From Candidatus Deferrimicrobium sp. (GTDB lineage: Bacteria > Desulfobacterota > Deferrimicrobia > Deferrimicrobiales > Deferrimicrobiaceae), in NCBI RefSeq assembly GCF_036396855.1, contig NZ_DASWKA010000030.1, forward strand, positions 12,103 to 76,102: a stretch of DNA of 64,000 nt, given 5' to 3'. The translations under genes were made by a program, and so were the position numbers. The notes beneath the pieces are model-generated. The model was not told the DNA's origin. It did not search any database and saw only the letters and a list, made by a program, of their open reading frames with translations. Positions 2,204-60,997 of this stretch are shown here, one piece after another. Position 1 is the stretch's first letter. Each line of letters begins with the position of its first letter.

Positions 2204-3928
2204 ATGGGCACCGCCATGAGTGACCCGACCCTTCGCCCCAAAGGATCCGGAGCACGGGATCCCGTCGACTTCCTCCGGGGGATCGTCCGGCGCGACACCG
2301 AATCCGGCGTCTACGGCGGCCGGGTGGCGACGCGCTTCCCCCCCGAGCCGAACGGCTTCCTGCACATCGGCCACGCCAAGTCGATCTGCATCAACTTCGG
2401 CATCGCCGCGGAGTTCGGCGGCGTCTGCCACATGCGGTTCGACGACACGAACCCGGAAACCGAGGACATGAAATACGTCGAATCGATCCGGCGCGACGTG
2501 CGCTGGCTCGGGTTCGACTGGAAAGAGAATCTCTTCTTCGCGTCGGATTATTACGAACAGCTCTACGAACTGGCGGTCCGCCTGATCCGGGACGGGAAGG
2601 CGTACGTGGACAGCCAGAACGACGAGGGGATCCGGAGGGGCCGCGGCACGATCACGGAGCCGGGCGTCCACAGCCCGTACCGGGACCGCGCGGTGGAGGA
2701 GAACCTCGACCTCTTCGCCCGCATGAAGGCGGGGGAGTTCCCCGACGGGGCGCACGTCCTGCGCGCGAAGATCGATATGGCGGCGCGGAACATGAAGCTG
2801 CGCGACCCGCTGCTCTACCGGATCCGCCACGCCGCGCACTATCGCCGCGGCGACGCCTGGTGCCTCTACCCGATGTACGATTTCGCCCATCCGCTCTCCG
2901 ACGCGATCGAGGGGATCACGCACTCGATCTGCACGCTCGAGTTCGAGAACAACCGGGCGATCTACGACTGGCTCGTCGACAACCTGTTCCCGGAACCTCG
3001 TCCCCGGCAATACGAGTTCGCGCGCCTGAACCTCGACTATACGGTGATGAGCAAGCGGAAGCTTCTCCAGCTGGTGGAGGAGGGACTCGTCTCCGGCTGG
3101 GACGATCCCCGGATGCCGACGATCGCCGGGATGCGCCGCCGCGGCTACGCGCCGGAAGGGATCAGGCTCTTTGCCGCGCGCATCGGCGTGGACAAGTCGA
3201 ACAGCCGCGTCAGCATGGAACTGCTCGAGGACGCGATCCGGGACGATCTGAACGCCCGGTCGCCGCGCGCGATGGCCGTCCTGCGCCCCCTCAAGGCGAC
3301 GATCACGAACTGGCCGGACAACCGGGTGGAAGAACTGGAGATCGCGCTTTGGCCGAAGGATGCCGGGAAGGAGGGGACGCGCACGGTCCCCCTGGCGCGC
3401 GAGATCCTCATCGAGCGCACCGATTTCTCCGTCGATCCGCCGGCCGACTGGCGCCGCCTGCGCCCGGGCGGCGAAGCGCGGCTCATGGGCGGCTACTTCC
3501 TCCGGTGCGACGAGGTTTTTCGCGACCCGGCCACCGGCGAGGTGTCGGAGCTCCTCTGCTCGTACGACCCCGAGTCTCTCGGCGCGCCGGCCAGGGGCGA
3601 GCGGAAGAAATCGACCGCGATCCAATGGGTGTCCGCTGCGCATGCGGTATCGGCCGAGGTCCGCCTGTACGACCGCCTGTTCACCGTCGCCGATCCCGAG
3701 AACGTGGAAGAGGGGAAGACGTTCAAGGAGTTCCTGAACCCGGCCTCGGTGGAGGTGCTGCGGGGATCCCTTGTCGAACCCGCTCTCGCGTCCGCCTCGC
3801 CCGGGGACCGTTTCCAGTTCGTCCGCAACGGCTACTTCATCGCCGACGAGGCCGATTCGAAGCCCGGCGCGCCGGTTTTCAACCGCATCGTCGGCCTGAA
3901 GGACAAGTACCGCCCCAAAGGGTATTGA
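2204..3928 (+). CDS. glnS: Glutamine--tRNA ligase
   Basis: 574-aa ORF with class I motifs FPPEPNGFLHIGHAK and VMSKRKL, and GlnRS-type architecture. An alternative ATG lies at 2216. Confidence 0.95.
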   Translation: MGTAMSDPTLRPKGSGARDPVDFLRGIVRRDTESGVYGGRVATRFPPEPNGFLHIGHAKSICINFGIAAEFGGVCHMRFDDTNPETEDMKYVESIRRDVRWLGFDWKENLFFASDYYEQLYELAVRLIRDGKAYVDSQNDEGIRRGRGTITEPGVHSPYRDRAVEENLDLFARMKAGEFPDGAHVLRAKIDMAARNMKLRDPLLYRIRHAAHYRRGDAWCLYPMYDFAHPLSDAIEGITHSICTLEFENNRAIYDWLVDNLFPEPRPRQYEFARLNLDYTVMSKRKLLQLVEEGLVSGWDDPRMPTIAGMRRRGYAPEGIRLFAARIGVDKSNSRVSMELLEDAIRDDLNARSPRAMAVLRPLKATITNWPDNRVEELEIALWPKDAGKEGTRTVPLAREILIERTDFSVDPPADWRRLRPGGEARLMGGYFLRCDEVFRDPATGEVSELLCSYDPESLGAPARGERKKSTAIQWVSAAHAVSAEVRLYDRLFTVADPENVEEGKTFKEFLNPASVEVLRGSLVEPALASASPGDRFQFVRNGYFIADEADSKPGAPVFNRIVGLKDKYRPKGY

Positions 3929-3949: not shown

Positions 3950-4045
3950 CGATAGGCCTACTAGCCGGGGTGCTCGTTCCTACAGGGGCGGGCTGAGATC
4001 ACACCCGTTGAACCTGATCCGGATAATGCCGGCGCAGGAAGACAA
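3950..4045 (+). promoter_or_regulatory. TPP (THI-box) riboswitch aptamer
   Basis: ctagccggggtgc...ggctgagatcacacccgttgaacctgatccggataatgccggcgcaggaag matches the conserved THI-box segments (GGGGUGC, CUGAGA, ACCC-UUGAACCUGAUC-GGAUAAUGCC-GCG-AGGAA). It lies directly 5' of thiS. Confidence 0.85.
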
Positions 4046-4051
4046 CGAGAT

Positions 4052-4087
4052 GCGCGCTCGGTGAAAAACCTGGCGCGTTTTTTTATT
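4052..4087 (+). terminator. Intrinsic terminator, the riboswitch expression platform
   Basis: GC stem gcgcgc(4052-4057)/ggcgcg(4072-4077) is followed by a run of seven T (4078-4084), immediately upstream of the thiS RBS. Confidence 0.6.
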
Positions 4088-7027: not shown

Positions 7028-8938
7028 ATGGACCGGACAGCCGACAAACGCGCCTTCCGCAGCCCCGGCGCCTCCAAGGAGGAGCGAAAACGGCTTCGTG
7101 CCGTTTTCGACCTTTCCGGCGACGCCATCTTCCTCATCGACGGAGGGGGGCGTTTCCTCGATGTCAACCAGGTCGCCTGCGAACGCTACGGCTATGCCCG
7201 GGACGAGATGCTGCGGCGGCACGCGGGCGATTTAAACGTCCCGGAGCATGCCCCGCACTACGAGGGTCGGATGGCAACGCTCCGACGCGACGGCGCCGTC
7301 ATCTTCGAGACGGTGCACCAGGCGAAGGACGGCCGGCGTATCCCCACGGAAATCAGCTCGAGGCTCATCCGCGGGGGAGGCCCGGACTTCATCATCAGCG
7401 TCTGCCGGGACATTACGGAGAGGGTGAAGGCGGAGGAGGAGCAGCAGATCTTCAAGTCCCTCGTTGAGAACAGCACCGATCTCATCGGGATCGCCTCGCT
7501 GGACGGGAAGGTCTTCTACCTGAACAAGGCCGGCCTGAAGCTCGTCGGTCTGGACAGCCTGGGAGAAGAACGGAGAAGGAGGATTCAGGACTTCGCCCTG
7601 GAAAAGCACTTTAAACCGTTGCAGGAGATGCTTGCGTCTCTCTCGAAAGAGGGGACGTGGAAGGGCGAGGCAAGGATTCGTGACTTCATTACGGGGACGC
7701 CGATTCCGGTCGAGATCCACGGGTTCGCCATCAGGGACGACAAGACCGGGCAGCCGATCGCCCTCGCGGCCATCGTTCGGGACATCTCGGAGCGGAAAAA
7801 ACTGGAAGAGGAGATGGCGAGGGGCGACAAGCTGAATTCGATCGGCATCCTTGCCGGGGGGATCGCACACGATTTCAACAACCTCCTGACGGCGATCTTC
7901 GGGAACATCACGCTGGCGAAGATGTACGCGAACCGCCGGAGCGAGGTGTACAAGCGGCTGGAGGAATCCGAGAAGGCGGCGGAACGGGCGAGAGACCTGA
8001 CCCACCAGCTGTTGACGTTTTCGAAGGGCGGAGCGCCCGTCAAGAGGACGATCTCTCTTCAGGAACTGGCGAAGGAGTCGGCGAACTTCGTCCTGCGGGG
8101 ATCCAACGTCAAGTGTGAGTTCTCGTTTCCCCCCGACCTTTGGCACGTGGAGGCGGACGAAGGACAGATCAGCCAGGTGCTCAACAACATCATCATCAAC
8201 GCCACCCATGCGATGCGCGAGGGGGGGACCGTGCAGATGCACTGCGGGAATGTGGTCGTCGAACAGAGCGACCCGCCGCTGGCGAAGGGCAAATACATTT
8301 TGATTTCCATCATGGATCACGGGACCGGGATCACGAAGAAGCACCTGTCGAAGATCTTCGATCCCTATTTCACGACGAAGAAGAAGGGCAGCGGTCTTGG
8401 GCTGTCGACCAGCTATTCCATCGTCAGGAGCCATGGCGGGCATATAACGGCCGAATCCTTCCCGGGGATCGGCACGACCTTCAAGATTTACCTGCCGGCC
8501 TCCGGGGAGGGAATGCTGCTCCCGTGCGCCGAAGACGCACTGTTTGTCACGGGGAAGGGGAGAATCCTGGTGATGGACGACGAGGAGGCGGTCCGGGATG
8601 TCGCCCGGGGCATGCTGGAGGCCCTCGGCTACTCGGTGACGCTTGCGAAAGACGGGACGGAAGCGATTGATTTCTATAAAGCGGCGATGGTGGACGGAGA
8701 GCCGTTCGATTCGGTGCTCATGGATCTTACGATACCGGGCGGCATGGGCGGCATGGAAGCGGTGAAGAGGATCCTTGAATTCGACTCGAAGGTGAAAGCG
8801 ATCGTTTGCAGCGGATATTCCAACGACACGATCATGGCGAACTACAACAGCTTCGGTTTCCGCGCCGTCGTTCCCAAACCTTACAGCCTGAAGCAATTAG
8901 GCGGAGCCATCAGCGAAGTCCTCTCAGCGCCGCAGTAA
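7028..8938 (+). CDS. Hybrid sensor histidine kinase (PAS-PAS-HisKA-HATPase-REC)
   Basis: ATG at 7028 with a GAGAGGA RBS, inside ORF 6503..8938. It has two PAS-like segments, an H-box GGIAHDFNNLL, N/G boxes (NNIIINATHAM, DHGTGI, GSGLGLS) and a C-terminal receiver (ILVMDDEE...LMDLTIPGGMGG). Confidence 0.9.
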   Translation: MDRTADKRAFRSPGASKEERKRLRAVFDLSGDAIFLIDGGGRFLDVNQVACERYGYARDEMLRRHAGDLNVPEHAPHYEGRMATLRRDGAVIFETVHQAKDGRRIPTEISSRLIRGGGPDFIISVCRDITERVKAEEEQQIFKSLVENSTDLIGIASLDGKVFYLNKAGLKLVGLDSLGEERRRRIQDFALEKHFKPLQEMLASLSKEGTWKGEARIRDFITGTPIPVEIHGFAIRDDKTGQPIALAAIVRDISERKKLEEEMARGDKLNSIGILAGGIAHDFNNLLTAIFGNITLAKMYANRRSEVYKRLEESEKAAERARDLTHQLLTFSKGGAPVKRTISLQELAKESANFVLRGSNVKCEFSFPPDLWHVEADEGQISQVLNNIIINATHAMREGGTVQMHCGNVVVEQSDPPLAKGKYILISIMDHGTGITKKHLSKIFDPYFTTKKKGSGLGLSTSYSIVRSHGGHITAESFPGIGTTFKIYLPASGEGMLLPCAEDALFVTGKGRILVMDDEEAVRDVARGMLEALGYSVTLAKDGTEAIDFYKAAMVDGEPFDSVLMDLTIPGGMGGMEAVKRILEFDSKVKAIVCSGYSNDTIMANYNSFGFRAVVPKPYSLKQLGGAISEVLSAPQ

Positions 8939-9062: not shown

Positions 9063-9473
9063 TCACTTCGGCACGGTCGGGTACCCGGCCTGGACCCAGG
9101 CGTCCCATCCCCCCTTCAGCACGGAGACCTTCGTAAACCCTTTCTCGATCAGCCGGAGCGCCACACCGGCGCTCGTTTGCTCGTTGCTTCAGGCGCAATA
9201 CAGGATCATGGGCTTGTTCTTGGAGTACCGCTTCTCCCATCCCCCCACGTCGTTCGGCTCTTCCCGCACCGCCCCGGCGATCTTGCGTTCGCTCCCTGTC
9301 CAATCCCTCCCGCTCCGGACATCCACAATGACGATTTCCGGGTTGCCCAAACGCTGCTTGAGTTCCTCCTTCGTGATCCGGGGAGGCTCCGCCGCTGAAA
9401 CTTCCCAGGAAACCGGTAAGGATGCCAACAGGAGGAACATCGCTCCGTAAGCGGCAATCCTTCTCTTTTTCAT
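9063..9473 (-). CDS. Periplasmic single-domain rhodanese, probable selenoprotein (in-frame UGA at 9191-9189)
   Basis: ATG at 9473 with a GGGAGGAG RBS, and signal peptide MKKRRIAAYGAMFLLLASLPVSWEVSAA. The rhodanese fold reads ...IVIVDVRSGRDW...KPMILYCA-[TGA]-SNEQTSAGVALRLIEKGFTKVSVLKGGWDAWVQAGYPTVPK*. The frame stays open for 41 more codons after the TGA and completes the domain. Confidence 0.7.
9156..9174 (-). promoter_or_regulatory. SECIS-like hairpin
   Basis: On the mRNA strand the hairpin is GAGCGCC-GGUGU-GGCGCUC (7-bp stem, G-rich apical loop). It starts 14 nt after the UGA. Confidence 0.6.
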
Positions 9474-9625
9474 ATCTCCTCCCTCGTGACTCCCGCGCGT
9501 CCCCAAAAATACTATTTTCGCAGAAAACGGATCACGGTTTTCCTGGATACGGAGAATATATGACTCCGATCCCCGCGCTTGGAATCATGGAGGACGTGCG
9601 AAACGTTATAGGTGTTTCCTGTATC

Positions 9626-10389: not shown

Positions 10390-10524
10390 CCCCCGAAGGG
10401 GGTACCCCAGGGAGCGCGTTATATCCGGGAGTGGGGCGGGGGAACCCCGCTCTATGAACGGCAGGTAATATGCGTGGCGGTCCCAGCGGGGTTCGAACCC
10501 GCGTTTTCGCCTGGGAGGGCGCCG
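10390..10524. repeat. Repeat copy A: 85-bp R element plus a 3' fragment of tRNA-Glu
   Basis: 10475-10511 is identical to the 3' 37 nt of the tRNA-Glu gene at 21755-21791, with degenerate similarity to about 10524. 10390-10474 is homologous to 15465-15552. Confidence 0.8.
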
Positions 10525-10787: not shown

Positions 10788-12785
10788 ATGGCCCACCAGC
10801 ACGTCGTCAGCGACTACATGGAGCACGGCGCCTGCTTTTCCTGGGAACCGGGACTTGTAGCGCTCCACGTCATCTCCGACATCGTAACCGGCATCGCGTA
10901 CTTTTCCATCCCCGCCGCACTGTTCTACTTCGCTTACAAGCGGCGGGACCTTCCCTTCCACGGCGTAATTCTCCTCTTCGGGATTTTCATCCTGGCGTGC
11001 GGGACCTCCCATTTCCTGGCGGCCTATACGGTATATGTCGCCGACTACTGGATCGAAGGGGGGGTGAAGGCGTTTACGGCGTTGATCTCGGCGGTGGCCG
11101 CCTTTTACATGATCCCCCTGATCCCCGATGCCATCGCGATGCCCAGTTTGACGAAGTCATTGAAACAGAACAAGGAGCTGAACGCGCAACTGGAAAGAAA
11201 ATTGGACGAACTGAACGGGAAAACCCGGGAACTCATGGAAACCAACCGTGAACTGAACCTCAGCGAAAGCCGTTTCCGAGTGCTGGTCGAGCATGCCCCG
11301 GACGCCATCGTCGTGTACGACGCAACGCAGAACAGGTTCGTGGACGCCAATGCCAATGCGGATCGTCTTTTCGGATGCAGTCGCGAGGAGCTCCTGGCAT
11401 CCGGACCGCCGCGGTTTTACGCATCGGCGCAGCCGGATGGGTTTCCCCCCGCTGAGAGCATGGAGAAGATGATCGAACGGGCCCTGGCCGGAGAAACATT
11501 GCTGTTCGAGCGAGCGGTGCACAACGCGGAAGGGAAGGATCTTCTTTGCGAGGTGCGGCTGGCACGATTGCCTTTTACGGATCGCAACCTGATGCGCGGC
11601 AGCTTCATCGACATCACCGAACGGAAGAAACTGGAGGAACGGTTGCGCCAGTCGCAGAAGATGGAGTCGGTCGGAAGGCTTGCGGGGGGCATCGCCCACG
11701 ACTTCAATAACCTCCTGACGGTGATCACCGGGTACAGCGAGCTCATGCTGAGCCAGCTTGAAGAGAGGTCGCCGCTGGTCAAGGAAGTGGAGGAAATCAA
11801 GCGGGCCGGCGAGCGGGCATCGTCGCTTACGCAGCAACTTCTTGCGTTCAGCCGACGCCAGGTGCTGCAGCCGAGGGTGATCGACCTGAACGAGGTGGTC
11901 TCCCGCGTGGAGAAAATGCTCCGCCGGTTGATCGGGGAGGACGTGGAGCTCCGGACGGTCCCGGGTGCGGGGCTGTGGAGCGTAAAGGCCGACCCGGGTC
12001 AGATCGAGCAGGTCCTGGTCAACCTCGTGGTGAACGCAAGGGATGCGATGCCCGGCGGCGGGGTGCTCACCATCGAGACGGGCAACGTGTTTCTCGACGA
12101 GGAATATTCCCTCGGGCATCTCCCCGCGCAGTCCGGCCATTACGTCATGCTCGCCGTCAGCGACACGGGAGTGGGGATGGACGAGAGGACGAAGTCGCAG
12201 GTCTTCGAGCCCTTCTTTACGACGAAGGAATCGGGGAAGGGGACGGGGCTCGGGCTCTCCACCGTATACGGAATCGTCAAGCAGAGCGGGGGCTACATCT
12301 GGGTGTACAGCGAGCCCGGCAAGGGATCGACGTTCAAGGTCTACATTCCGCGCACGGAGGAGCGGGAGGATGGTCCACGCAAGGCGGTCCCGCCTGTCGA
12401 GGATCTTCGCGGGGAGAAAACCGTTCTCATTGTCGAAGACGAGGAATCGATTCTGAAATTGTCCTGCGCCGTTCTCGGTGGATACGGGTACGCGGTTCTT
12501 GCGGCGCGCGGCGGGGAGGATGGCCTTCGGATCGCCGGGAAGCACGAGGGGGAGATCAGCCTGCTCCTGACCGATGTGGTCATGCCCGGGATGGGGGGAA
12601 GGGAGTTGTACGAGCGGATTCTGCAGCAGCGACCGAAGATCAAGGTCCTTTACATGTCCGGCTATACGGACAAAGCGATCGTTCGCCGGGGTGTGCTGGA
12701 TCCGGGGACGTCTTTCCTGCAGAAGCCTTTCTCGCCGATTTCCCTGGCCCGGAAAGTGAAGGAGGTCCTTGAACCCCGGGCGTAA
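10788..12785 (+). CDS. Hybrid histidine kinase with N-terminal ethylene-binding-domain-like membrane module (EBD-PAS-HisKA-HATPase-REC)
   Basis: 665-aa ORF. Residues 27-120 align without gaps to Arabidopsis ETR1 helices 1-3 (ISD, IAYFSIP, FG.FI..CG..H, IP). After that come a coiled coil, a PAS domain, the H-box GGIAHDFNNLL, an ATPase domain and a receiver. Confidence 0.9.
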   Translation: MAHQHVVSDYMEHGACFSWEPGLVALHVISDIVTGIAYFSIPAALFYFAYKRRDLPFHGVILLFGIFILACGTSHFLAAYTVYVADYWIEGGVKAFTALISAVAAFYMIPLIPDAIAMPSLTKSLKQNKELNAQLERKLDELNGKTRELMETNRELNLSESRFRVLVEHAPDAIVVYDATQNRFVDANANADRLFGCSREELLASGPPRFYASAQPDGFPPAESMEKMIERALAGETLLFERAVHNAEGKDLLCEVRLARLPFTDRNLMRGSFIDITERKKLEERLRQSQKMESVGRLAGGIAHDFNNLLTVITGYSELMLSQLEERSPLVKEVEEIKRAGERASSLTQQLLAFSRRQVLQPRVIDLNEVVSRVEKMLRRLIGEDVELRTVPGAGLWSVKADPGQIEQVLVNLVVNARDAMPGGGVLTIETGNVFLDEEYSLGHLPAQSGHYVMLAVSDTGVGMDERTKSQVFEPFFTTKESGKGTGLGLSTVYGIVKQSGGYIWVYSEPGKGSTFKVYIPRTEEREDGPRKAVPPVEDLRGEKTVLIVEDEESILKLSCAVLGGYGYAVLAARGGEDGLRIAGKHEGEISLLLTDVVMPGMGGRELYERILQQRPKIKVLYMSGYTDKAIVRRGVLDPGTSFLQKPFSPISLARKVKEVLEPRA

Positions 12786-13032: not shown

Positions 13033-15396
13033 ATGCCCCTGCTCGCGGGCATCCGATCCGCTTATATCCCGATGGCTCCCATCACCTCGATCGCCCTGGC
13101 TTGCCTCGGGGGGCTGCTCCTCGTTATCTCGGTGGGCCCCTCGCAAGGTTTGGTGGGCATGCTCGCAGTCGTGATTTCCGCGCTCATTTCGGCATACGGG
13201 CTGATCGAGCTCGTGGAAGCCCTGGGAATCCCCTTACTCTCCCTGGAAGAACGGCTGTTTCCCCATCCTCCGATGGTGGGTGCGATCCCCACCGGCCGCA
13301 TGTCACCGACAACGGCGGGTCTCCTGCTCCTCGCGGGAGCGGTTGTCCCGTTGCACTCTCTCCGCGAGCGGGGAGGGGAGCGCCGGAAGCTTCTCGGAGA
13401 CCTGGCCGGGTGTCTGGGGATTCTCGTGGCGATGGGCGGGATGGTGGTCGTCCTGAGCTATCTGCACGGGACCCCTCTTCTGTATGGCACCCTGACGATT
13501 CCGATGGCGGCTACGACCGCGCTCGCGTTCCTGTTGCTGGGAACGGGGCAGCTCCTCGCGATGGGACCGGACGGGTTCCCGTCGAGGCTGTTCTCGGGGC
13601 ATTCGGTCCGGGCCAGGCTTCTCCGGGCGTTCGTCTCGACCACGGTCGGTGTCGTGGTGGCGATCGACCTGTTGCACGTCTATGCCCGTGGAGTTTTCTT
13701 CGAAGACAACGCAATCCTGTCCGGTGTTTCCGCCACGGCCGTCGCCGTGATAACGGGTGCGCTGATCGCAAGAGTGGCCTTGAAGGTCGGCGACGACATG
13801 GACCGTTCCGAAGAAATCCGCAGGGAGGCGGAGGACAAACTTCGCGAGAGCGAGGATCGGTATCGGGACCTTGTGGAGCACAGCCAGGACCTCATCTGTA
13901 CGCACGATCTGGAGGGTCGCATCCTCTCCGCGAATCCGTGGGCTGCAACGATCCTGGACTACGCCCCGGAGGAGTTGTTGCGAATGAATTTCCGCGAACT
14001 TCTCGTGCCGGAAGTTCGTCATGAGTTCGAAAGATACCTGGAAAAGATCAGGATGCATGGCACCGCGCGGGGCCTGATGCGGGTTCAGACGCGCAATGGC
14101 GACCGGCGCCTCTGGGAATACAAGAACACCTTGCGTACGGAAGGATTGGCGGAACCGATCGTCCGCGGGATGGCGCATGACGTCACCGAGAGCAAGCGGG
14201 CGGAGGCGGAAAAGCGGAACCTGGAAGAGCAGGTCCGGCGGACGCAGAAGCTGGAGAGCCTGGGCGTGCTGGCCGGCGGGATCGCGCACGACTTCAACAA
14301 CATCCTGATGGCCGTGCTGGGGCACGCCGAGCTGGCCCTCGCCGAAATATCCCCGATGTCCCCCGCCCGCCGGAACATCACCGAGATCGCGACCGCGGCG
14401 CGCCGTGCCTCCGAACTGTGTCGGCAGATGCTGGCGTACGCCGGCAAGACGTCCATCGCGTTGGAGCGGGTGGTGCTGCGGGATCTGGTCGAGGAGATGG
14501 CGCACCTGCTCAAGACCGCGATCTCGAAGAAGGCGATCCTTAACCTGAACCTGGAGCGGGGCCTTCCGCCGATCGAGGCGGATCCGAGCCAGATCCGGCA
14601 GATCGTAATGAACCTGATCATCAACGCCTCGGAAGCGATCGGGGACCGGAGCGGGGTGGTCACCGTATCGGTGGGCGCGACGCGTTGCGACGAGGAGTAC
14701 CTGAGCAGGACGGAACTTCGGGAGACGCTGGCGCCCGGGCTGTACCTCCACCTGGAGGTGGCGGATACCGGCTGCGGGATAGGCGAGGAGACGCGATTGC
14801 GAATCTTCGAGCCGTTCTTCTCCACCAAGTTCACGGGGCGGGGACTGGGACTGGCCGCCGTCCTGGGGATCGTCCGGGCGCACAAGGGGGCGCTGAAGGT
14901 GTACAGCGAACCCGGGAAGGGTACGACGTTCAAGATCCTCTTCCCGGCGACGGAAGGACCGGTGGAGGGAGCACGGACCATCGAGCCCGCCCCGCTGGCC
15001 GACTGGCGGGGGAAGGGGACGATCCTGCTGGTGGACGACGAGGAGAGCCTGGTCGCCCTGGGGGCGCGGATGTTGGAGCACCTGGGCTTCACCGTACTGC
15101 TGGCGTCGGACGGCCTGCAGGCGGTGGAGCTGTACCGGGAACGGGGGAAGGAGATCGACATGGTGCTGATGGACCTGACGATGCCGCACATGGACGGCGC
15201 GGAAGCATTCGGGGAGCTGCGCCGGCTGAACCCCGCCGTCCTGGTGGTCCTCGCCAGCGGGTACAGCCACGAAGACGTGGCGTCCCGCTTCGCGGGGAAG
15301 GGTCTCAACGGGGTGTTGCAGAAGCCGTATTCCCTTCTCAAGCTCCGGGAATCGCTCGCCGGATTGTTGCCGAAACGACAGGAGGGGGATGCGTGA
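13033..15396 (+). CDS. Hybrid histidine kinase with a multi-TM N-terminal sensor (TM-PAS-HisKA-HATPase-REC)
   Basis: 787-aa ORF with several hydrophobic helices in the first ~250 aa. It has a PAS domain, the H-box GGIAHDFNNIL, an ATPase domain and a receiver (ILLVDDEES...LMDLTMPHMDG). The frame is open upstream to 12895 (see findings). Confidence 0.9.
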   Translation: MPLLAGIRSAYIPMAPITSIALACLGGLLLVISVGPSQGLVGMLAVVISALISAYGLIELVEALGIPLLSLEERLFPHPPMVGAIPTGRMSPTTAGLLLLAGAVVPLHSLRERGGERRKLLGDLAGCLGILVAMGGMVVVLSYLHGTPLLYGTLTIPMAATTALAFLLLGTGQLLAMGPDGFPSRLFSGHSVRARLLRAFVSTTVGVVVAIDLLHVYARGVFFEDNAILSGVSATAVAVITGALIARVALKVGDDMDRSEEIRREAEDKLRESEDRYRDLVEHSQDLICTHDLEGRILSANPWAATILDYAPEELLRMNFRELLVPEVRHEFERYLEKIRMHGTARGLMRVQTRNGDRRLWEYKNTLRTEGLAEPIVRGMAHDVTESKRAEAEKRNLEEQVRRTQKLESLGVLAGGIAHDFNNILMAVLGHAELALAEISPMSPARRNITEIATAARRASELCRQMLAYAGKTSIALERVVLRDLVEEMAHLLKTAISKKAILNLNLERGLPPIEADPSQIRQIVMNLIINASEAIGDRSGVVTVSVGATRCDEEYLSRTELRETLAPGLYLHLEVADTGCGIGEETRLRIFEPFFSTKFTGRGLGLAAVLGIVRAHKGALKVYSEPGKGTTFKILFPATEGPVEGARTIEPAPLADWRGKGTILLVDDEESLVALGARMLEHLGFTVLLASDGLQAVELYRERGKEIDMVLMDLTMPHMDGAEAFGELRRLNPAVLVVLASGYSHEDVASRFAGKGLNGVLQKPYSLLKLRESLAGLLPKRQEGDA

Positions 15397-15464: not shown

Positions 15465-15600
15465 CCCCCGAAGGGGGTACCCCTGGGAGCGCGATATATC
15501 CGGGAGTGGGGCGGGGGGGAACCCCGCTATATAAACGGCAGGCGGTTATTCGTGGCGGTCCCAGCGGGGTTCGAACCCGCGTTTTCGCCGTGAGAGGGCG
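15465..15600. repeat. Repeat copy B: 88-bp R element plus the 3' 48 nt of tRNA-Glu (attL-like)
   Basis: 15553-15600 is identical to 21755-21802 (tRNA-Glu from its 3' end into the anticodon loop). 15465-15552 is homologous to 10390-10474. Confidence 0.85.
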
Positions 15601-15688: not shown

Positions 15689-16570
15689 TTGACGGTAACA
15701 CCGAACTGGGCGATCCGCACGGAATTCTCCCTCCTCCACGGCCGGGCGTTCCGAAGTCTTAAACGGATCACGACCGTGAAGGCCCTCTTTTACTTCTACG
15801 AAAAGCGCGTCGTGAAGGTGGACAAGCGGAAACGTGGCGATAAGCGATTCCAGGTCCAGCACGACGCGGAGATCAAGTTTTCCTACAAGGAAGCAGAGCA
15901 GCGGGGACTGACGCGAAAGCGGTTCGCGCAGGCGATCCGGGATCTTCATGCGGCCGGATTCATCGACATCCTCTATCGCGGCAGCGGGGCGCTGAAAGAT
16001 AGTTCCACCTATCGGTTGAGTGAACGGTGGAGGCGGTTCGATACTCCGGACTTCAAGGCCCAGGACATTCCCCTGCGTCTCCGGGAAGAACCGACGAAGA
16101 ATCTGGAACACGACGAAAAAGGAAGGTGGACCCGGGAAGAGGAAAAACCTCAAGTGGTCGAAATGCCCCTTGCTCAAGGGTCAAAACGTCCACTTGAGAT
16201 AACCGTACAAGGGTCAAACCGTCCACTTGAAAGGGGCGATTTCGACCAATCTTCAAGGGTCATAACGTCCACTGAACTAAGTACTACCAGGGGTAGCACT
16301 CGGATTCGGACTGTGAAGAAGGTTAAAAGAAAGACTCGGACCCGCGGTCACGGTTCAAAAGCTATCGCGGCCCCATTGAAAACGAAAATTCGACCCGCTG
16401 CAATTCCTACATGGCCGGATCAAAGCAAGGTACTCGACCTATGCGACAAGCTCCTCCTCGACTCCCTGGAGCGGTTCGGGGATGACGGCCGACCTCACCC
16501 CGAGATGGAGACGGCGCGGAACCTTATCAAGATCATCAACCGGGCGGTGGGAAGCGAGGCGGTGAACTGA
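15689..16570 (+). CDS. Phage/plasmid-type DNA-binding, replication-initiator-like protein
   Basis: 293-aa ORF (TTG start). The N-terminal pattern TPNWAIR...FRSL...AKALFYF...SYKEAEQRGLTRKRFAQAIRDLHAAGFI is typical of winged-helix proteins of integrative elements. The gene contains three iterons. The functional call is inference. Confidence 0.5.
   Translation: MTVTPNWAIRTEFSLLHGRAFRSLKRITTVKALFYFYEKRVVKVDKRKRGDKRFQVQHDAEIKFSYKEAEQRGLTRKRFAQAIRDLHAAGFIDILYRGSGALKDSSTYRLSERWRRFDTPDFKAQDIPLRLREEPTKNLEHDEKGRWTREEEKPQVVEMPLAQGSKRPLEITVQGSNRPLERGDFDQSSRVITSTELSTTRGSTRIRTVKKVKRKTRTRGHGSKAIAAPLKTKIRPAAIPTWPDQSKVLDLCDKLLLDSLERFGDDGRPHPEMETARNLIKIINRAVGSEAVN
16175..16275 (+). repeat. Three direct 22-23-bp iterons (CAAGGGTCAAAACGTCCACTTGA)
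   Basis: Copies at 16175-16197, 16208-16230 and 16254-16275 lie inside the rep-like ORF and encode the repeated QGSKRPLE/QGSNRPLE. Confidence 0.75.
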
Positions 16571-21754: not shown

Positions 21755-21830
21755 TGGCGGTCCCAGCGGGGTTCGAACCCGCGTTTTCGCCGTGAGAGGG
21801 CGGCGTCCTGGGCCACTAGACGATGGGACC
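21755..21830 (-). tRNA. tRNA-Glu (anticodon CUC)
   Basis: The 76-nt sequence GGTCCCATCGTCTAGTGGCCCAGGACGCCGCCCTCTCACGGCGAAAACGCGGGTTCGAACCCCGCTGGGACCGCCA closely resembles E. coli tRNA-Glu. The anticodon loop is CUCUCAC and CCA is encoded. Confidence 0.95.
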
Positions 21831-56712: not shown

Positions 56713-57267
56713 ATGCGGAAAGCGGGAATCATCCTGGTAGCGGCTGTGGTCACGGCGATCTTCGCGGGGACCTCCCTCGCGGAAGGGTTGCGGGTGGCCG
56801 TCATCGACATGAACAAGATCCTCAACGACTCCGAGGCGGGCCAGTCGGCGAAGAAGAAGATGGAATCCCGGTACGAGGAGCTGAAAAAAGCGATCGACAG
56901 GACGCAGGAAGAGGCGCGCAAGATCAAGGACGAGATCGACAAGCAGAAGGTGATGCTGGGGAAGGAGAAGCTCAAGGAGAAGGAGGACGCCCTCCAGGCG
57001 AAGATCAACGAACTGCGGCAGATGACCCAGAAGGGGGAGCAGGAGATGCAGGCCCAGCAAGCCGAATTCACCCGCGATGTGTTCAAGGCGGTCGAGAAGC
57101 AGGTCGAGGTCGTCGTGAAGGCCGACAAGCTCGATATCGTCCTCGAGAAGACGGCGGGGGTCATCCATTTCAACCCGTCGATGGACATCTCGCTGCGGGT
57201 CCTTGACCTGGTGAACAAGGCCGGCAAGGAGGCGCCGGAGAAAAAGAGTAGCGGAAGTGGGAAGTGA
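56713..57267 (+). CDS. skp: Periplasmic chaperone Skp (OmpH family)
   Basis: ATG at 56713. It has a signal peptide and a Lys/Glu-rich coiled coil, in the bamA-skp-lpxD context. Confidence 0.85.
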   Translation: MRKAGIILVAAVVTAIFAGTSLAEGLRVAVIDMNKILNDSEAGQSAKKKMESRYEELKKAIDRTQEEARKIKDEIDKQKVMLGKEKLKEKEDALQAKINELRQMTQKGEQEMQAQQAEFTRDVFKAVEKQVEVVVKADKLDIVLEKTAGVIHFNPSMDISLRVLDLVNKAGKEAPEKKSSGSGK

Positions 57268-57429
57268 GGGTCTGTCACGGAATAAAGTGTGCAGATATGG
57301 GCGTTGAGTCGCCCGGCCGGCAAGGCACGAGGAGGGAGAATACCGTGAGTATTCGACAGACGAGCAACGCAGCCCGCCGGGATGAATCGGCGGCCAGATC
57401 GCACAGGTTATTCCGTGACAGGCCCTAAG
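57264..57429 (+). ncRNA. 166-nt structured repeat element, copy 1 (candidate cis-regulatory RNA or hairpin MITE)
   Basis: A 19-bp closing stem joins 57267-57285 with 57408-57426 (one U.G on the + strand). Internal hairpins are GGGCG-N6-CGCCC, GAATAC-CGTGA-GTATTC and CCGCCG-N8-CGGCGG. It is 156/166 identical to 59685-59850. Confidence 0.7.
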
Positions 57430-58449
57430 CTCCTTCTCTCGGTTCTGGCGGAGGCGATCGGGGCCCGTCTCCAGGGGACGGACGCCGAGGTGAGCGGGAT
57501 CGCAGGGGTGGACGAGGCCGGGCCGGGACAGGTCACCTTCCTGTCGAACCCGAAGTACACCCGACAGGCCCGGGAGACGAAGGCGTCCGCGATCATCGCC
57601 AAACAGCCGATCTCCGGCGCCGGGTGCGCGTTCCTGCTCACGCCGGATCCGTACCTCGCCTTCGCCCTTGCCGTCGAGCGGTTCCACCCGACGGTGCGGC
57701 TCGCCGCCGGCGTTTCCGCGCAGGCCAGCGTCCATCCGACCGCCGTGCTGGGGAAGGAGGTGCACGTCGGCCCTTTCGCCGTCGTCGCCGAGGGAGCGGT
57801 CGTCGGCGACCGGGTCACGCTGTACCCCGGGACGTACGTCGGGAAGGGAGCGGTCGTCGGCGACGACTCCGTTCTTCACCCGCGGGTCACTCTCTATGAA
57901 GGGGTGCGTGTCGGGAAGCGGGCGCTCCTGCACGCCGGCTGCGTGATCGGCAGCGACGGCTTCGGGTTCGCGCCGACTCCGCAGGGGTACCGGAAGATAC
58001 CGCAGGTGGGGACCGTCGAGATCGGGGACGACGTCGAGATCGGGGCGAACACCACGATCGACCGCGCAGCGCTCGGGGTCACCCGCGTCGGTCCCGGGAC
58101 CAAGCTGGACAACCTGATCCAGGTGGCGCACAACGTGGAGATCGGCCGGGACACGGTGATCGCCGCCCAGGTGGGGATATCGGGGAGCGCCCGGATCGGG
58201 GACCGCGTGATGATCGGCGGTCAGTCGGGGCTGGCGGGGCACATCGAGGTGGGTGACGGGGTGATGCTCGGCGCGAAGACCGGGGTGGCCGCATCGCTCT
58301 CGGCGAAGGAGAGCAGGGCCTGGTCGGGAGTGCCGGCGATGCCCCACAGGACCTGGCTGAAAATGGCGACGCTCCTGCCGAGGCTGCCGGAGCTTTTCCG
58401 GCGGGTCGCCCGGCTGGAGGGCGGGAAACCTGCGGAAGGAGAGGAGTGA
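57415..58449 (+). CDS. lpxD: UDP-3-O-acylglucosamine N-acyltransferase
   Basis: ORF 57382..58449. GTG at 57415 gives VTGPKLLLSVLAEAIGARL.G, which fits LpxD N-termini. The ATG at 57382 belongs to the repeat element. Hexapeptide repeats run throughout. Confidence 0.9.
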   Translation: MTGPKLLLSVLAEAIGARLQGTDAEVSGIAGVDEAGPGQVTFLSNPKYTRQARETKASAIIAKQPISGAGCAFLLTPDPYLAFALAVERFHPTVRLAAGVSAQASVHPTAVLGKEVHVGPFAVVAEGAVVGDRVTLYPGTYVGKGAVVGDDSVLHPRVTLYEGVRVGKRALLHAGCVIGSDGFGFAPTPQGYRKIPQVGTVEIGDDVEIGANTTIDRAALGVTRVGPGTKLDNLIQVAHNVEIGRDTVIAAQVGISGSARIGDRVMIGGQSGLAGHIEVGDGVMLGAKTGVAASLSAKESRAWSGVPAMPHRTWLKMATLLPRLPELFRRVARLEGGKPAEGEE

Positions 58450-58450
58450 C

Positions 58451-58909
58451 ATGTTCCGAATCCGGGAAATCATGGAGCTGTTGCCGCACCGGTACCCGTT
58501 CCTGCTCGTGGACCGGATCCTGGAGTGGGAACCCGGGAAGCGGATCGTCGGCATCAAAAACGTGACGATCAACGAGCCGTTCTTCCAGGGGCACTTCCCG
58601 GGACACCCGATCATGCCGGGTGTCCTGATCGTGGAGGCCCTCGCGCAGACGGGGGGGATCCTCGCGCTCAAGGAGATGGGAGGCGGGAAACGGATCGCGT
58701 ACTTCACGGGGATCGACAATTGCAAATTCCGCCGGCCGGTCGTCCCTGGAGACCAGCTTCGCCTGGAGATCACCGTGATCGCACACAAGGGGCCGGTGTG
58801 GAAGATGCACGGCGAGGCCCGGGTCGACGGTGCGCTCGCGGCGAGGGGGGACGTGACGGCGACGATCCCGGACGGCGTCGATCCGGGCGGGGAAGGGGAA
58901 GAGACATGA
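58451..58909 (+). CDS. fabZ: 3-hydroxyacyl-ACP dehydratase FabZ
   Basis: 152 aa with motifs LPHRYPFLLVDR and FFQGHFPG.PIMPGVL. Confidence 0.95.
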   Translation: MFRIREIMELLPHRYPFLLVDRILEWEPGKRIVGIKNVTINEPFFQGHFPGHPIMPGVLIVEALAQTGGILALKEMGGGKRIAYFTGIDNCKFRRPVVPGDQLRLEITVIAHKGPVWKMHGEARVDGALAARGDVTATIPDGVDPGGEGEET

Positions 58910-59688
58910 TTCATCCGACCGCCATCATCGATCCGGGGGCGGAGCTCGGGAAAGACGTCTCGGTCGGGTCGTTCGCCGTAATCGGGCCGAAGGTGACGAT
59001 CGGCGACGGGACCACCGTCGGATCGCACGCGGTCATCGAGTCCCACGTCCGCATGGGAAAGGGGAACCGCATCCATTCGTTCGCCTCCGTCGGGGCGATC
59101 CCGCAGGATCTGAAGTTCCGCGGCGAGGAGTCGTGGGTGGAAATGGGGGACGGGAACATCATCCGCGAATTCGCCACCTTGAACCGTGGCACCTCCGGGG
59201 GCGGAGGCGTGACGCGGATCGGGAACAACACGCTGGTGATGGCGTACAGCCATGTCGCCCACGACTGCGTCATCGGGAGCCGCGTCATCATGGCGAACGC
59301 GGCCACTCTCGCCGGCCACGTTACGATCGAGGACGGCGCGATCATCGGCGGGATGACCGGGGTGCACCAGTTCGTCCGGATCGGGGAGCACTGCATCATC
59401 GGAGGGATGTCGGCCGTTTCGCAGGACGTTCCGCCGTACGTCACGGCGGTCGTTTCCCGACCGCAGCGCGGATACGCGCTTTACGGTCTGAACCTCGTAG
59501 GGCTCCGGCGGAACCGCTTCTCCCCGGAGACCGTTGCTGCGCTGAAGCAGGCGTTCAAGATCATCTTCCGCGCGGAGGTTCCCATCAAGGAGGCGCTTGC
59601 GCGGGCCGAGGCGGAGCTCCCGGCGCTGCCCGAGGTCAGGCACCTGATCGCGTTCGTCCGCGAGAGTAAACGCGGCGTTCTGAGGTGA
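58906..59688 (+). CDS. lpxA: UDP-N-acetylglucosamine O-acyltransferase
   Basis: ATG at 58906 (ATGA overlap). It begins MIHPTAIIDP and has hexapeptide repeats. Confidence 0.95.
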   Translation: MIHPTAIIDPGAELGKDVSVGSFAVIGPKVTIGDGTTVGSHAVIESHVRMGKGNRIHSFASVGAIPQDLKFRGEESWVEMGDGNIIREFATLNRGTSGGGGVTRIGNNTLVMAYSHVAHDCVIGSRVIMANAATLAGHVTIEDGAIIGGMTGVHQFVRIGEHCIIGGMSAVSQDVPPYVTAVVSRPQRGYALYGLNLVGLRRNRFSPETVAALKQAFKIIFRAEVPIKEALARAEAELPALPEVRHLIAFVRESKRGVLR

Positions 59689-59850
59689 GGGTCGGTCCAG
59701 GAATAATGTGTGCAGATATGGGCGTTGAGTCGCCCGGCCGGCAAGGCACGAGGAGAGAGAATACCGTGAGTATTCGACCGACGAGCAACGCAGCCCGCCG
59801 GGATGAATCGGCGGCCAGATCGCACAGATTATTCCTGGACCGGCCCTAAG
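59685..59850 (+). ncRNA. 166-nt structured repeat element, copy 2
   Basis: A 19-bp closing stem joins 59688-59706 with 59829-59847. It has the same internal hairpins as copy 1 and ends 1 nt before the lpxB ATG. Confidence 0.7.
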
Positions 59851-59851
59851 G

Positions 59852-60997
59852 ATGCCGAAAACCTTGTTCCTCGCCTGCGGGGAGCCTTCGGGGGAGGCGT
59901 ACGCCGCGCGGGTGGCGCGCGCGTTCCGCGGCCGCTTTCCGGGCGTCCCGATGGAGGGGATCGGAAGCGCGCTTCTCGCGGCGGAAGGGGTGAGGATCCT
60001 GCGGGATTACGGCGACATCTCCGTCATCGGCGTCACGGAAGCGCTGCGGCGCCTTCCGGCGATCCGCGCGGCCCTTTCCGCGGTCACGGCGCGCGTGAGC
60101 CGACCCGACATCGGAGCGGTGCTGCTCGTCGACTTTCCCGACTTCAACTTCCGGGTGGGGAAAACCGCCGCGCGGCGCGGGATCCCCGTGGTCTATTACG
60201 TCCCCCCGCAGGTGTGGGCCTGGCGACCCGGCCGGGCGAAGACCCTCTCCCGGTTCACGAAGGGCGCGGTCGTCCTGTTCCCCTTCGAGGTCGCATTCCT
60301 TCGCGCAAGCGGCGTAAACGCCGTCTTCGCCGGACATCCGATTCTCGACGAGCTCGCCCCGTTCCTCGACGCGCCTCCCGACCCGGACCGGTTCGGGATC
60401 CCCCGGGGGAAGCGGGGGATCGGCCTGCTCCCGGGAAGCCGGTCGGGGGAAGTCGCCGCGCACCTTCCGATCCTGCTCGACGCCGCGCGCCTCCTCCTTC
60501 AACGGTTTCCCGACCTCCACTTCGCCCTTCCCGTGGCGCGTCCGGCGCTGCGTGAGGCGATCGCGCGCGAGGTCGCGGACTCGGGGCTTCCGGTCGCGCT
60601 GGTGGACGAGACGCGGCAACTCCTCTTCCGGGGGCTGGAGGCCGCGATCGCGGTTTCGGGAACCGTCACGCTCGAGCTTGCCCTGCTTGGCGTGCCGGCG
60701 GTCATCGTCTACCGGACCTCCTGGTTGAGCTACCAGGTCGGCCGTCGCCTGGCGAGGGTCGACTGCGTCGGCCTGCCCAACATCGCTTCAGGAGAGAAGT
60801 TCCTGCCGGAGTTGATCCAGGACGACTGCACTCCGCAGCGGATCGCCGTCGCCCTCGGGGAGATCCTGTCCGATCCGGCGCACAGGGAGCGTCTGCGCGC
60901 GATGGGGCTCTCGCTGCGTTCGATCCTCCGCGGCCCGGGTCCCACGGAGGCGGTCGTTTCGATGCTGGGGAGGGAGGCGGCGGAAGGATGGGCGTGA
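59852..60997 (+). CDS. lpxB: Lipid-A-disaccharide synthase
   Basis: 381 aa with GEPSGE and VVYYV.PQVWAWR motifs. Confidence 0.95.
   Translation: MPKTLFLACGEPSGEAYAARVARAFRGRFPGVPMEGIGSALLAAEGVRILRDYGDISVIGVTEALRRLPAIRAALSAVTARVSRPDIGAVLLVDFPDFNFRVGKTAARRGIPVVYYVPPQVWAWRPGRAKTLSRFTKGAVVLFPFEVAFLRASGVNAVFAGHPILDELAPFLDAPPDPDRFGIPRGKRGIGLLPGSRSGEVAAHLPILLDAARLLLQRFPDLHFALPVARPALREAIAREVADSGLPVALVDETRQLLFRGLEAAIAVSGTVTLELALLGVPAVIVYRTSWLSYQVGRRLARVDCVGLPNIASGEKFLPELIQDDCTPQRIAVALGEILSDPAHRERLRAMGLSLRSILRGPGPTEAVVSMLGREAAEGWA

Follow-up and report, generated by a model that had tools for sequence, protein, structure and literature searches.

The subject of this report is a hairpin-forming repeat found twice in the lpx cluster of a 64,000-nt stretch of DNA from Candidatus Deferrimicrobium sp. 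(contig NZ_DASWKA010000030.1, positions 12,103 to 76,102 of the forward strand; hereafter the window, in whose numbering its positions are given). We conclude that the repeat is probably an undescribed, non-autonomous element of the MITE type (for miniature inverted-repeat transposable element), a hairpin of ~158 bp with a 3-bp T-N-A duplication that resides in uncultured Deferrimicrobiaceae-like hosts and is kept by selection as a hairpin of the mRNA. This conclusion is carried by two sets of observations. The element is dispersed, is present or absent among close relatives, leaves relics and usually sits exactly on the upstream stop codon. Furthermore, its copies do not decay after insertion: compensatory change keeps the hairpin, it is the mRNA strand that folds more stably, and sense orientation is seen at 26 of the 28 orientable sites.

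Dispersal of the element and its insertion on stop codons

The two copies lie on the same strand at 57264-57429 and 59685-59850, each of 166 positions, in the gene order bamA, skp, (copy 1), lpxD, fabZ, lpxA, (copy 2), lpxB, msbA, as established from NCBIfam profiles and public gene calls. They differ at 10 of the 166 positions (57273, 57277, 57278, 57286, 57336, 57358, 57407, 57415, 57416 and 57420), eight of which fall in the terminal stem and two in the inner 126 nt. Three pairs are full compensatory swaps between the copies (57273/57420, 57277/57416 and 57278/57415), the pair 57286/57407 is mismatched in copy 1 and paired in copy 2, and U.G wobbles occur in both. The two copies, their ten differences, the stem swaps, the wobbles and the placement of the copies between skp and lpxD and between lpxA and lpxB had been reported in the initial annotation of the sequence and were reproduced here by direct comparison, with the amendment that the shared stretch is three bases longer on the left (identity begins at 57261/59682). 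Two points had been absent from it, namely that the TGA within the repeat serves the gene upstream, skp (57265-57267) or lpxA (59686-59688), as its stop codon, and that the start codon of lpxD, a GTG at 57415-57417, is located in the right arm of copy 1. The 64-kb window holds no further copies besides these two.

Alignments of 19 and of 63 copies with their flanks, together with filled and empty sites, place the ends of the element at (A)GGGYCTGTCC...GGACAGRCCC(T), so that copy 1 proper spans 57268-57425 on the + strand (GGGTCTGTCA...TGACAGGCCC) as one long imperfect hairpin. Copy 2 proper, delimited by junction comparisons in which relatives show an empty site or a relic, spans 59689-59846 (+). 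The terminal inverted repeats (TIRs), GGGYCTGTCCAGGAATAA and TTATTCCTGGACAGRCCC, measure 19-22 bp, and the element is non-coding and, at ~158 bp, under the ~300 bp limit for MITEs. On the left it is usually flanked by T[GA]A and on the right by T-N-A or TAG. At copy 1 the left triplet is the TGA of the skp stop (57265-57267), which closes the skp open reading frame (ORF), and the right one is a TAA (57426-57428) that also terminates a 27-codon ORF begun in the apical loop; at copy 2 the left triplet is the TGA of the lpxA stop (59686-59688), and the right one a TAA (59847-59849) positioned 2 nt upstream of the lpxB ATG (59852). Across the family, 19 of 31 sites have a left triplet that genuinely terminates a long upstream ORF, and a TAG overlapping the first G of the element is found at three more.

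A scan with an 18-mer query of one genome per species (GTDB metagenome-assembled genomes, MAGs) recovered 17 full-length copies, 90-96% identical, mainly from MAGs labelled Deferrimicrobiaceae, Deferrimicrobium or 'Deltaproteobacteria bacterium', and the lpx cluster accounted for only two of the loci found. Together with a metagenome scan that used a pattern from the centre of the element, at least 75 full-length copies were collected, which collapse to at least ~31 distinct insertion sites at unrelated junctions, both counts being lower bounds. At ten of the other sites the downstream genes encode a DnaJ, an MglA-like GTPase, a LapB-like protein, a T2SS-F protein, a BadF/BcrA ATPase, an acyl-CoA synthetase, an SDR protein, LysA, AccC and a flavoprotein. 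The lpx locus of the window was itself met again on ENA and JGI metagenome contigs, several of which terminate inside copy 2. Metagenome contigs ending within the element are also seen at loci L002, L004, L095, L110, L114, L137 and L170 of our collection.

Comparison with relatives showed that neither lpx copy is a fixed part of the cluster. The skp-lpxD junction is empty in L182, L184 and L185, and the lpxA-lpxB junction is empty in L028 (AGGTAGGAATG), L023 (AGGTAGGGCCCTGAAGGTG) and L182-L184; four relatives whose LpxD proteins are 88-91% identical to that of the window lack the element at both junctions. L028 and L023 retain the skp-lpxD copy, and the lpxA-lpxB junction is filled in the window and in L066/L073, which represent another species with a longer native spacer. 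An element specific to the lpx cluster was therefore rejected, given its dispersal at unrelated junctions and the empty lpx junctions of relatives. The comparison with L184 is the most informative, as it preserves the undisturbed skp-lpxD overlap (GGCGATGGGAGGTAAGCGC), in which the TAA stop of skp lies within codons 3-4 of lpxD (the empty site itself being GGAGGTAAGCGC). Where the window reads AGTGGGAAGTGA(GGG...CCC)TAAGCTC, L184 reads ...GGTAAGCGC, which indicates insertion on the TAA with a 3-bp duplication, the left duplicate of which, originally TAA, is now TGA in the window.

Relics were found in addition to empty sites. In L183 (3990-4025) the skp-lpxD junction reads GGAAGTGAGGGCCCCAAG, that is, TGA, GGG, CCC and CAA in succession, so that only the terminal trinucleotides of the element are left, and LpxD begins MGSEGPK; in L185 (6270-6302) the lpxA-lpxB junction carries a truncated relic consisting of a 16-nt stub of the left arm (TGAGGGCCTGTCCGGGAATCCCCTGAGGATG). 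The GGG and CCC that remain in L183 may stem from excision by a transposase or from slipped-strand deletion between GG repeats, both of which fit. The lpxA-lpxB junction of L023 (1690-1705) reads TAG-GGCCC-TGA, and the short relics there, in L183 and in L185 are possible excision footprints or slippage deletions. Taking the 'GGCCCTGAAGG' of L023 as an excision footprint was considered and set aside as ambiguous, since L066 and L182 show the same sequence as, also, a native spacer; L183 and L185 are the clearer relics. Being short, bounded by TIRs, present in dispersed copies and polymorphic in its presence, the element behaves as a MITE.

Upkeep of the hairpin and the start codon of lpxD

The predicted folds of copies 1 and 2 have energies of -90 and -96 kcal/mol (z = -9.8 and -11.1, with 0 of 200 shuffles as good). 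Three interior hairpins had been proposed for them; both the minimum-energy and the centroid folds of the two copies instead form one long irregular hairpin with a single apical stem-loop. The earlier proposal, that conservation concerns the pairing rather than the sequence and does so on the mRNA strand, stands and gains much support from the alignment of 63 distinct copies, in which 98.5% of the cells of a 52-pair consensus structure contain standard pairs. Thirteen pairs have changed on both sides, as compared to 6.2 +/- 1.2 in column shuffles (0 of 500 reach 13) and 1-5 when partners are slid. U.G pairs occupy three positions in 43-56 of the 63 copies, G.U cells outnumber A.C cells by 184 to 9 overall and by 34 to 9 among minority states, and the RNA of the + strand is the stabler one in every one of the 63 copies, with a mean of -91 versus -78 kcal/mol.

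Stop and start positions, ORFs and GC by codon position together assign sense orientation, in which the + strand reads in the direction of the neighbouring or downstream gene, to 26 of the ~31 sites; two (L062/L065/L146 and L126) are antisense between co-directional genes, and three lie between convergent genes. At sites shared among species the element diverges by 1-7%, as compared to 5-19% in the 600 nt of flanking, mostly coding, DNA, which amounts to a rate of change 3-10 times slower than that of adjacent coding DNA (1.3% vs 19% at site 19, for example, and 0.6% vs 11% at site 12). Variants specific to a site are retained across species, which argues against homogenisation among copies.

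The skp-lpxD copy illustrates how such upkeep can proceed after insertion. In relatives without the element, LpxD begins with MG(S/N)K(F/I)LLS, and the start region reads GTGGGAAGTGAGGGCCCCAAG in L183 and ATGGGAGGTAAG in L184, against GTGGGAAGTGA, the element and TAAG in the window. The GTG that aligns with the lpxD start of these relatives is retained in the window (57257-57259), cut off from lpxD by the insertion. In species that carry a skp-lpxD copy the LpxD start always lies in the right arm of the element, where TGG is the family consensus, TTG is found in five species and the window carries GTG (57415-57417; a gene call, the NCBIfam LpxD profile starting at residue 6 of the ORF). The partner base in the left arm follows, being C in the consensus, A in combination with TTG, and from A to C again in combination with GTG. 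The insertion of copy 1 thus split lpxD from its own start, with the right-arm GTG evolving as a replacement and the left arm compensating.

Two of the three compensatory swaps between the window copies are the very changes that created this GTG. They represent compensation in the wake of a change that was selected at one fixed locus, which co-evolution of TIRs with a transposase cannot explain. The original argument for an RNA, namely that a transposase-recognised TIR would conserve its sequence, is weak when made on two copies, and it is this compensation after insertion at an orthologous site that rescues it. In genomes that bear the element, gene callers place the start of lpxD variously, at an internal ATG at 57382 (LpxD homolog P0020, MNRRPDRTGYS...) or at the GTG/TTG of the arm at 57415 (homologs P0002/P0011). 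The internal ATG was rejected as a general start, for its frame agrees with that of the downstream gene at 8 of 22 sites, as often as chance would give.

The apical core, a proposed mechanism and its rivals

At the tip of the hairpin lies a core that spans 57319-57374 in copy 1 (GGCAAGGCACGAGGAGGGAGAATAC-CGTGA-GTATTCGACAGACGAGCAACGCAGCC) and 59740-59795 in copy 2 (both +), and which is common to hairpin elements with unrelated arms. Searching with the core pattern also retrieved at least ~60 such elements, the termini of which are likewise unrelated (CTAG followed by AACCCATCTC..., TTA followed by GGGCCCGTCAGG..., or TTA followed by GTGGTCC..., for example) and which share GCAAGGCGCGAGGAGGGAGAATA-loop-TATTCGACYGACGAGCAACGCAGC. 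This wider set (L062-L181), from soil, peat and groundwater metagenomes, has only the ~55-100 nt of the apical core in common with the window family. Examples are found at L092:509-568, L087:485-650 and L149:803-900, flanked by CTAG, TTA or TAG-type repeats; L131 contains three copies within 7 kb (2418-2582, 3509-3597 and 9388-9550), and L108 and L172 each contain two cores in inverted arrangement.

In an alignment of 35 cores, 9 of 14 predicted pairs show two-sided changes, in as many as 18 sequences for a single pair, with the enclosing stem P2 covarying heavily and the apical stem P3 covarying by eye. Together, the conserved strands 5'-GCGAGGAGGGAG and 5'-CGACNGACGAGC could be taken as a single putative helix, made of G-C pairs in alternation with three tandem G.A steps. 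The distant members were gathered through the core itself, so that the conservation of the core is in part a matter of ascertainment.

The core also bears the marks of a translation start. A Shine-Dalgarno-like AGGAGG (57330-57335, read from the sequence) is followed after 9 nt by a GUG (57345-57347) in the 5-nt apical loop; the corresponding GTG of copy 2 is at 59766-59768. From here a putatively translated frame of 27 codons and a stop (57345-57428, +) runs through the 3' arm to the right-hand TAA. The loop frame stays open up to the right-hand terminal stop, where it ends, at 20 of 23 sense sites, and the start of the next gene usually lies 0-12 nt from that stop. Sense sites keep the loop GUG unchanged in 22 of 23 cases, as compared to 4 of 10 other sites (Fisher p = 0.001, in a test that counts sites related by descent, which weakens it). 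That the frame encodes a conserved protein was considered and rejected, as third positions are invariant and a second position (the N in GACNGACG) varies. Elsewhere in the window, GGAGGAGGGAGAATTCCGTG on the - strand (15713-15748) closely resembles the core plus loop of the element (GAGGAGGGAGAATACCGTG); if this stretch is an ordinary ribosome-binding site (RBS) with a GTG start, the apex of the element would mimic a translation start of the genome.

These features suggest how a hairpin of this kind might come to be kept. The element would be co-transcribed with its operon, and the long hairpin would loop out the 160-nt insert, thereby placing the upstream stop and the downstream start side by side in the mRNA. 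Such adjacency would keep tightly coupled genes expressed, breakage of the stem would be harmful, and the host would in consequence maintain the fold. The apex, being similar to a translation start, would launch ribosomes on the 27-codon frame, which ends on the duplicated stop beside the downstream start; its translation may open up the 3' arm and finish at the point at which ribosomes from the upstream gene formerly stopped, restoring termination-reinitiation coupling.

A bolder version can be drawn from the same data, in which the element is a mobile, self-neutralising operon-junction cassette: it would land on a stop codon and duplicate it, its RNA fold would keep stop and start adjacent, and its own RBS and loop GUG frame would restore coupling, with hosts holding it under purifying selection and drawing start codons from it, as for lpxD. 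The apex with its triple tandem G.A steps would then be a new structured nucleic-acid motif, present in several bacterial phyla on different mobile arms and presumably binding the ribosome or some protein. We offer this version tentatively and, taken with all its parts, consider it rather doubtful.

Several points weigh against a mobile element kept as an mRNA hairpin, and they concern first of all its mobility. Identical flanks (TAA/TAA or TGA/TGA) are found at ~8 of 24 sites, which is near chance if the middle base is free, and many pairs differ precisely there; sister families show TTA/TTA and TCA/TCA. The target duplication is thus supported mainly by a few filled/empty comparisons, and the one at lpxA-lpxB fits an insertion within TA about equally well. 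In the ~1 Mb of DNA fetched for the loci, neither an autonomous partner nor a solo inverted-repeat end was found.

Other points concern the constraint. Conservation exceeds that of the flanks by a factor of 2-3 at the two antisense sites too, if less strikingly, and so a function of the sense RNA cannot be the sole constraint. Housekeeping operons, of which the sites are examples, have a tendency to occupy the leading strand, and the orientation bias could in part reflect the direction of replication. Among the distant core-sharing families, several copies are clearly antisense to genes by ORF inspection (L087, L130, L084 and L149), and codon-position GC gives only low-confidence orientation calls, with no clear orientation rule across the superfamily. 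A start codon is missing from the loop in many of these families, and thus the mini-ORF cannot explain the conservation of the core. Lastly, we infer co-transcription, RNA folding and translation of the loop ORF from the DNA.

The conservation of the core could alternatively mean that the apex is a stand-alone structured RNA or protein-binding platform, with its three tandem G.A steps resembling a k-turn and its GGA motifs, which binds a protein or the ribosome and for which the arms are merely carriers. The core is nearly invariant across families with unrelated arms and termini, P2 and P3 covary, the strands of the internal loop (GCGAGGAGGGAG and CGACNGACGAGC) are predicted to pair with three tandem G.A steps, and the motif is not in Rfam. 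Set against this, binding of a ligand or protein is itself a supposition, the mixed orientation in distant families is awkward for a platform whose reverse complement loses the G.A pairs, and recruitment of distant members by the core pattern exaggerates the apparent conservation. As an account of the element, we deem this reading possible and on balance improbable.

We also regard as unlikely a purely selfish MITE with no role as RNA, the arms of which are maintained at the level of DNA by shared transposase binding at the ends, by template-switch correction of the quasi-palindrome or by gene conversion among copies. Ripley-type quasi-palindrome mutation, in which template switching within inverted repeats copies changes from one arm to the other, is well known, and it yields paired arm changes such as those seen here. 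Dispersal, polymorphism and relics are what a selfish element would produce, and it would also sit well with the conservation of both antisense sites and with distant families that follow no clear orientation rule. Against it stands the asymmetry between the strands, for template switching and TIR co-evolution predict perfect, strand-symmetric complementarity, yet the three U.G pairs persist through most of the 63 copies, sporadic mismatches are G.U rather than A.C, and the + strand folds more stably in every copy. Moreover, a 26 to 2 orientation bias is unexpected for cut-and-paste insertion at a palindromic T-N-A, and where neutral decay would be expected the element changes more slowly than adjacent coding DNA and keeps site-specific variants.

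A strand-specific fold that tolerates G.T would likewise suit a hairpin formed by single-stranded DNA (ssDNA) of the lagging-strand template and working as IS200/IS605, REP-RAYT or integron attC sites do, with the apex as the recombinase site and the strand bias reflecting replication direction. The combination of a conserved apex and conserved internal loops with stems that vary and covary resembles ssDNA sites that are recognised by structure, leading-strand genes have as their sense strand the lagging-strand template and it is at housekeeping operons that the element sits, and under this reading distant families need not be consistently sense. HUH-type elements make no target duplication and have asymmetric ends, unlike the perfect TIRs and 3-bp duplication described above; no HUH, RAYT or integrase gene was seen among the called genes adjoining any copy, and the orientation bias exceeds the typical leading-strand gene bias. 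We consider this reading quite improbable. The initial annotation had offered a new cis-acting RNA of the lipid A operon as one possibility. A dedicated cis-regulatory RNA of the lpx operon, riboswitch-like or under RNase III control and tuning lpxD and lpxB, has in its favour the strong fold, the sequestered lpxD start and the presence of a pair of copies within 2.4 kb inside the lpx cluster and none elsewhere in the window, and is made very improbable by at least ~29 other sites at unrelated genes, by empty junctions in close relatives, by L023 and L028, which keep the skp-lpxD copy without one at lpxA-lpxB, and by the lack of an Rfam match.

Known repeat families and wider meaning

That no named RNA family could be recognised in the repeat agrees with our Rfam searches, in which the window gave nothing at gathering score for the element, its region 57100-60000 gave nothing on either strand at E up to 10, and 20 loci of the wider core-sharing superfamily gave no match except one tRNA. 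The defining motifs of hammerhead, twister and hairpin ribozymes, SRP and 6S RNA and integron attC sites are absent by eye, and those with Rfam models were unmatched. By blastn the element found no match in PLSDB plasmids, phages or E. coli genomes (the latter being 5,426 complete genomes, 28 Gb, searched at word size 11), nor did a member of a sister family in PLSDB plasmids; a core-pattern scan of IMG/VR returned nothing, and a full-text literature search for strings of the core returned only unrelated primers. Neither copy contains a promoter-like or terminator-like site in a scan for both.

E. coli genomes carry ERIC, REP and BIME repeats, and the blastn result against them thus gives no sequence similarity by which to assign the element to these families. 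IS200/IS605-derived and REP-RAYT elements are short hairpins of 20-40 nt whose 5' tetranucleotide is conserved and which have a Y1 transposase close by; the present element has symmetric ends, a 3-bp duplication and no Y1 transposase among the called genes near its copies, and does not belong with them.

The alternative put forward at the outset, a Correia- or ERIC-like hairpin MITE co-opted into the cluster, was essentially right as to kind, even though the sequence belongs to neither family. ERIC or IRU repeats of Enterobacteriaceae (YPAL in Yersinia) are intergenic operon repeats that are co-transcribed and affect the fate of the mRNA (PMC3184786, PMC10969869). Our element is similar to ERIC in being an imperfect palindrome of 100-170 bp, conserved between species, with short T/A-containing flanks, and unlike it in sequence, in a T-N-A triplet rather than TA as flank, in its strong sense bias and position on stop codons, and in an apical core shared with families of other arms. 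Correia elements of Neisseria (CREE/NEMIS) are hairpin MITEs with long TIRs, co-transcribed with their neighbours, and the RNA stem they form is a substrate of RNase III (PMC10969869). Cutting by RNase III is, by analogy, a plausible fate of the 19-22 bp terminal stem described here. Compared by description, Correia elements differ in their TA duplication, promoters, IHF site, 26-bp repeats and host phylum, as opposed to the T-N-A duplication and promoter-free copies of the present family.

Among other repeats with such properties, bcr1 of the Bacillus cereus group is a transcribed, MITE-like element of ~155 bp in which compensatory changes keep the RNA structure (PMC3184786). It differs from ours in having 5-bp direct repeats and in having repeatedly lost structural stability, as opposed to the near-complete pairing and slower-than-flank change found here. 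Mycobacterial MIRU and Neisseria REP2 are intergenic operon repeats that bring frames, an RBS or a start codon abutting or overlapping the flanking genes (PMC3184786), an arrangement which the Shine-Dalgarno-like sequence, GUG and terminal stop of our element would match if translated; MIRU, at 40-100 bp, is often tandem and forms no long hairpin. Geobacter uraniireducens, from a related phylum, has a MITE, Chunjie, which sits in an operon without breaking it (PMC10969869, PMC3184786). At 178-235 bp, A+T-rich and with 21-bp inverted and 9-bp direct repeats (PMC3184786), it is set apart by its description as a separate family.

As for the source of mobility, a trans-acting DDE transposase of the IS5 / PIF-Harbinger type may move the element, a guess based on the T-N-A duplication and the GGG/GGC termini. 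These termini presumably resemble the ends of Tourist, IS5 and PIF-Harbinger elements. Canonical Harbinger elements make 3-bp duplications and are kin to the IS5 family (PMC12730594), and a 3-bp T-N-A/TWA duplication would be shared with Tourist-type MITEs, so that membership in this group may serve as a lead. In the ~1 Mb of fetched loci, no IS5-like transposase with the ends of the window element was found, and nothing like a transposase arrangement surrounds the multi-copy loci L131, L082 and L172.

The window has other features besides. A thiamine pyrophosphate (TPP) riboswitch aptamer lies at 3956-4057 on the + strand (Rfam RF00059, 63.5 bits, exceeding the gathering score). The 52-nt 3' part of a tRNA-Glu gene (21755-21830, - strand) recurs at 15549-15600 and 10471-10522, 6 kb and 11 kb away, with 100% and 83% identity, respectively, and near these part-repeats are a 66-nt repeat (10390-10455 and 15465-15530) and repeated histidine-kinase-like segments (7829-7914, 11658-11743 and 14248-14333), a neighbourhood which looks like islands integrated in tandem, or duplicated, at a tRNA gene. 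At its edge (102-414) the window holds a 42-nt tandem repeat array (a 103-nt unit in six overlapping copies at 42-nt spacing), and a separate 300-nt repeat, 81% identical, is found at 919-1218 and 1619-1918.

Among MITE-like intergenic hairpin repeats, the family described here is notable for its insertion on stop codons, its sense bias, its strong purifying selection and its cross-family apical motif. For annotation it carries a warning, given that gene callers vary on the start of lpxD and that metagenome assemblies break at the element. MITEs of bacteria are usually seen as passengers in decay; the present family sits in essential, tight operons, at skp-lpxD, at lpxA-lpxB and near dnaJ, accC and lysA, and in one case the element has been absorbed into an essential gene, the start of lpxD now lying in its right arm. 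It thereby offers a natural system for the study of how insertions are made harmless in translationally coupled operons, of host selection versus element selection in the upkeep of MITE structure, and of the role of a widely shared, unannotated apical motif.

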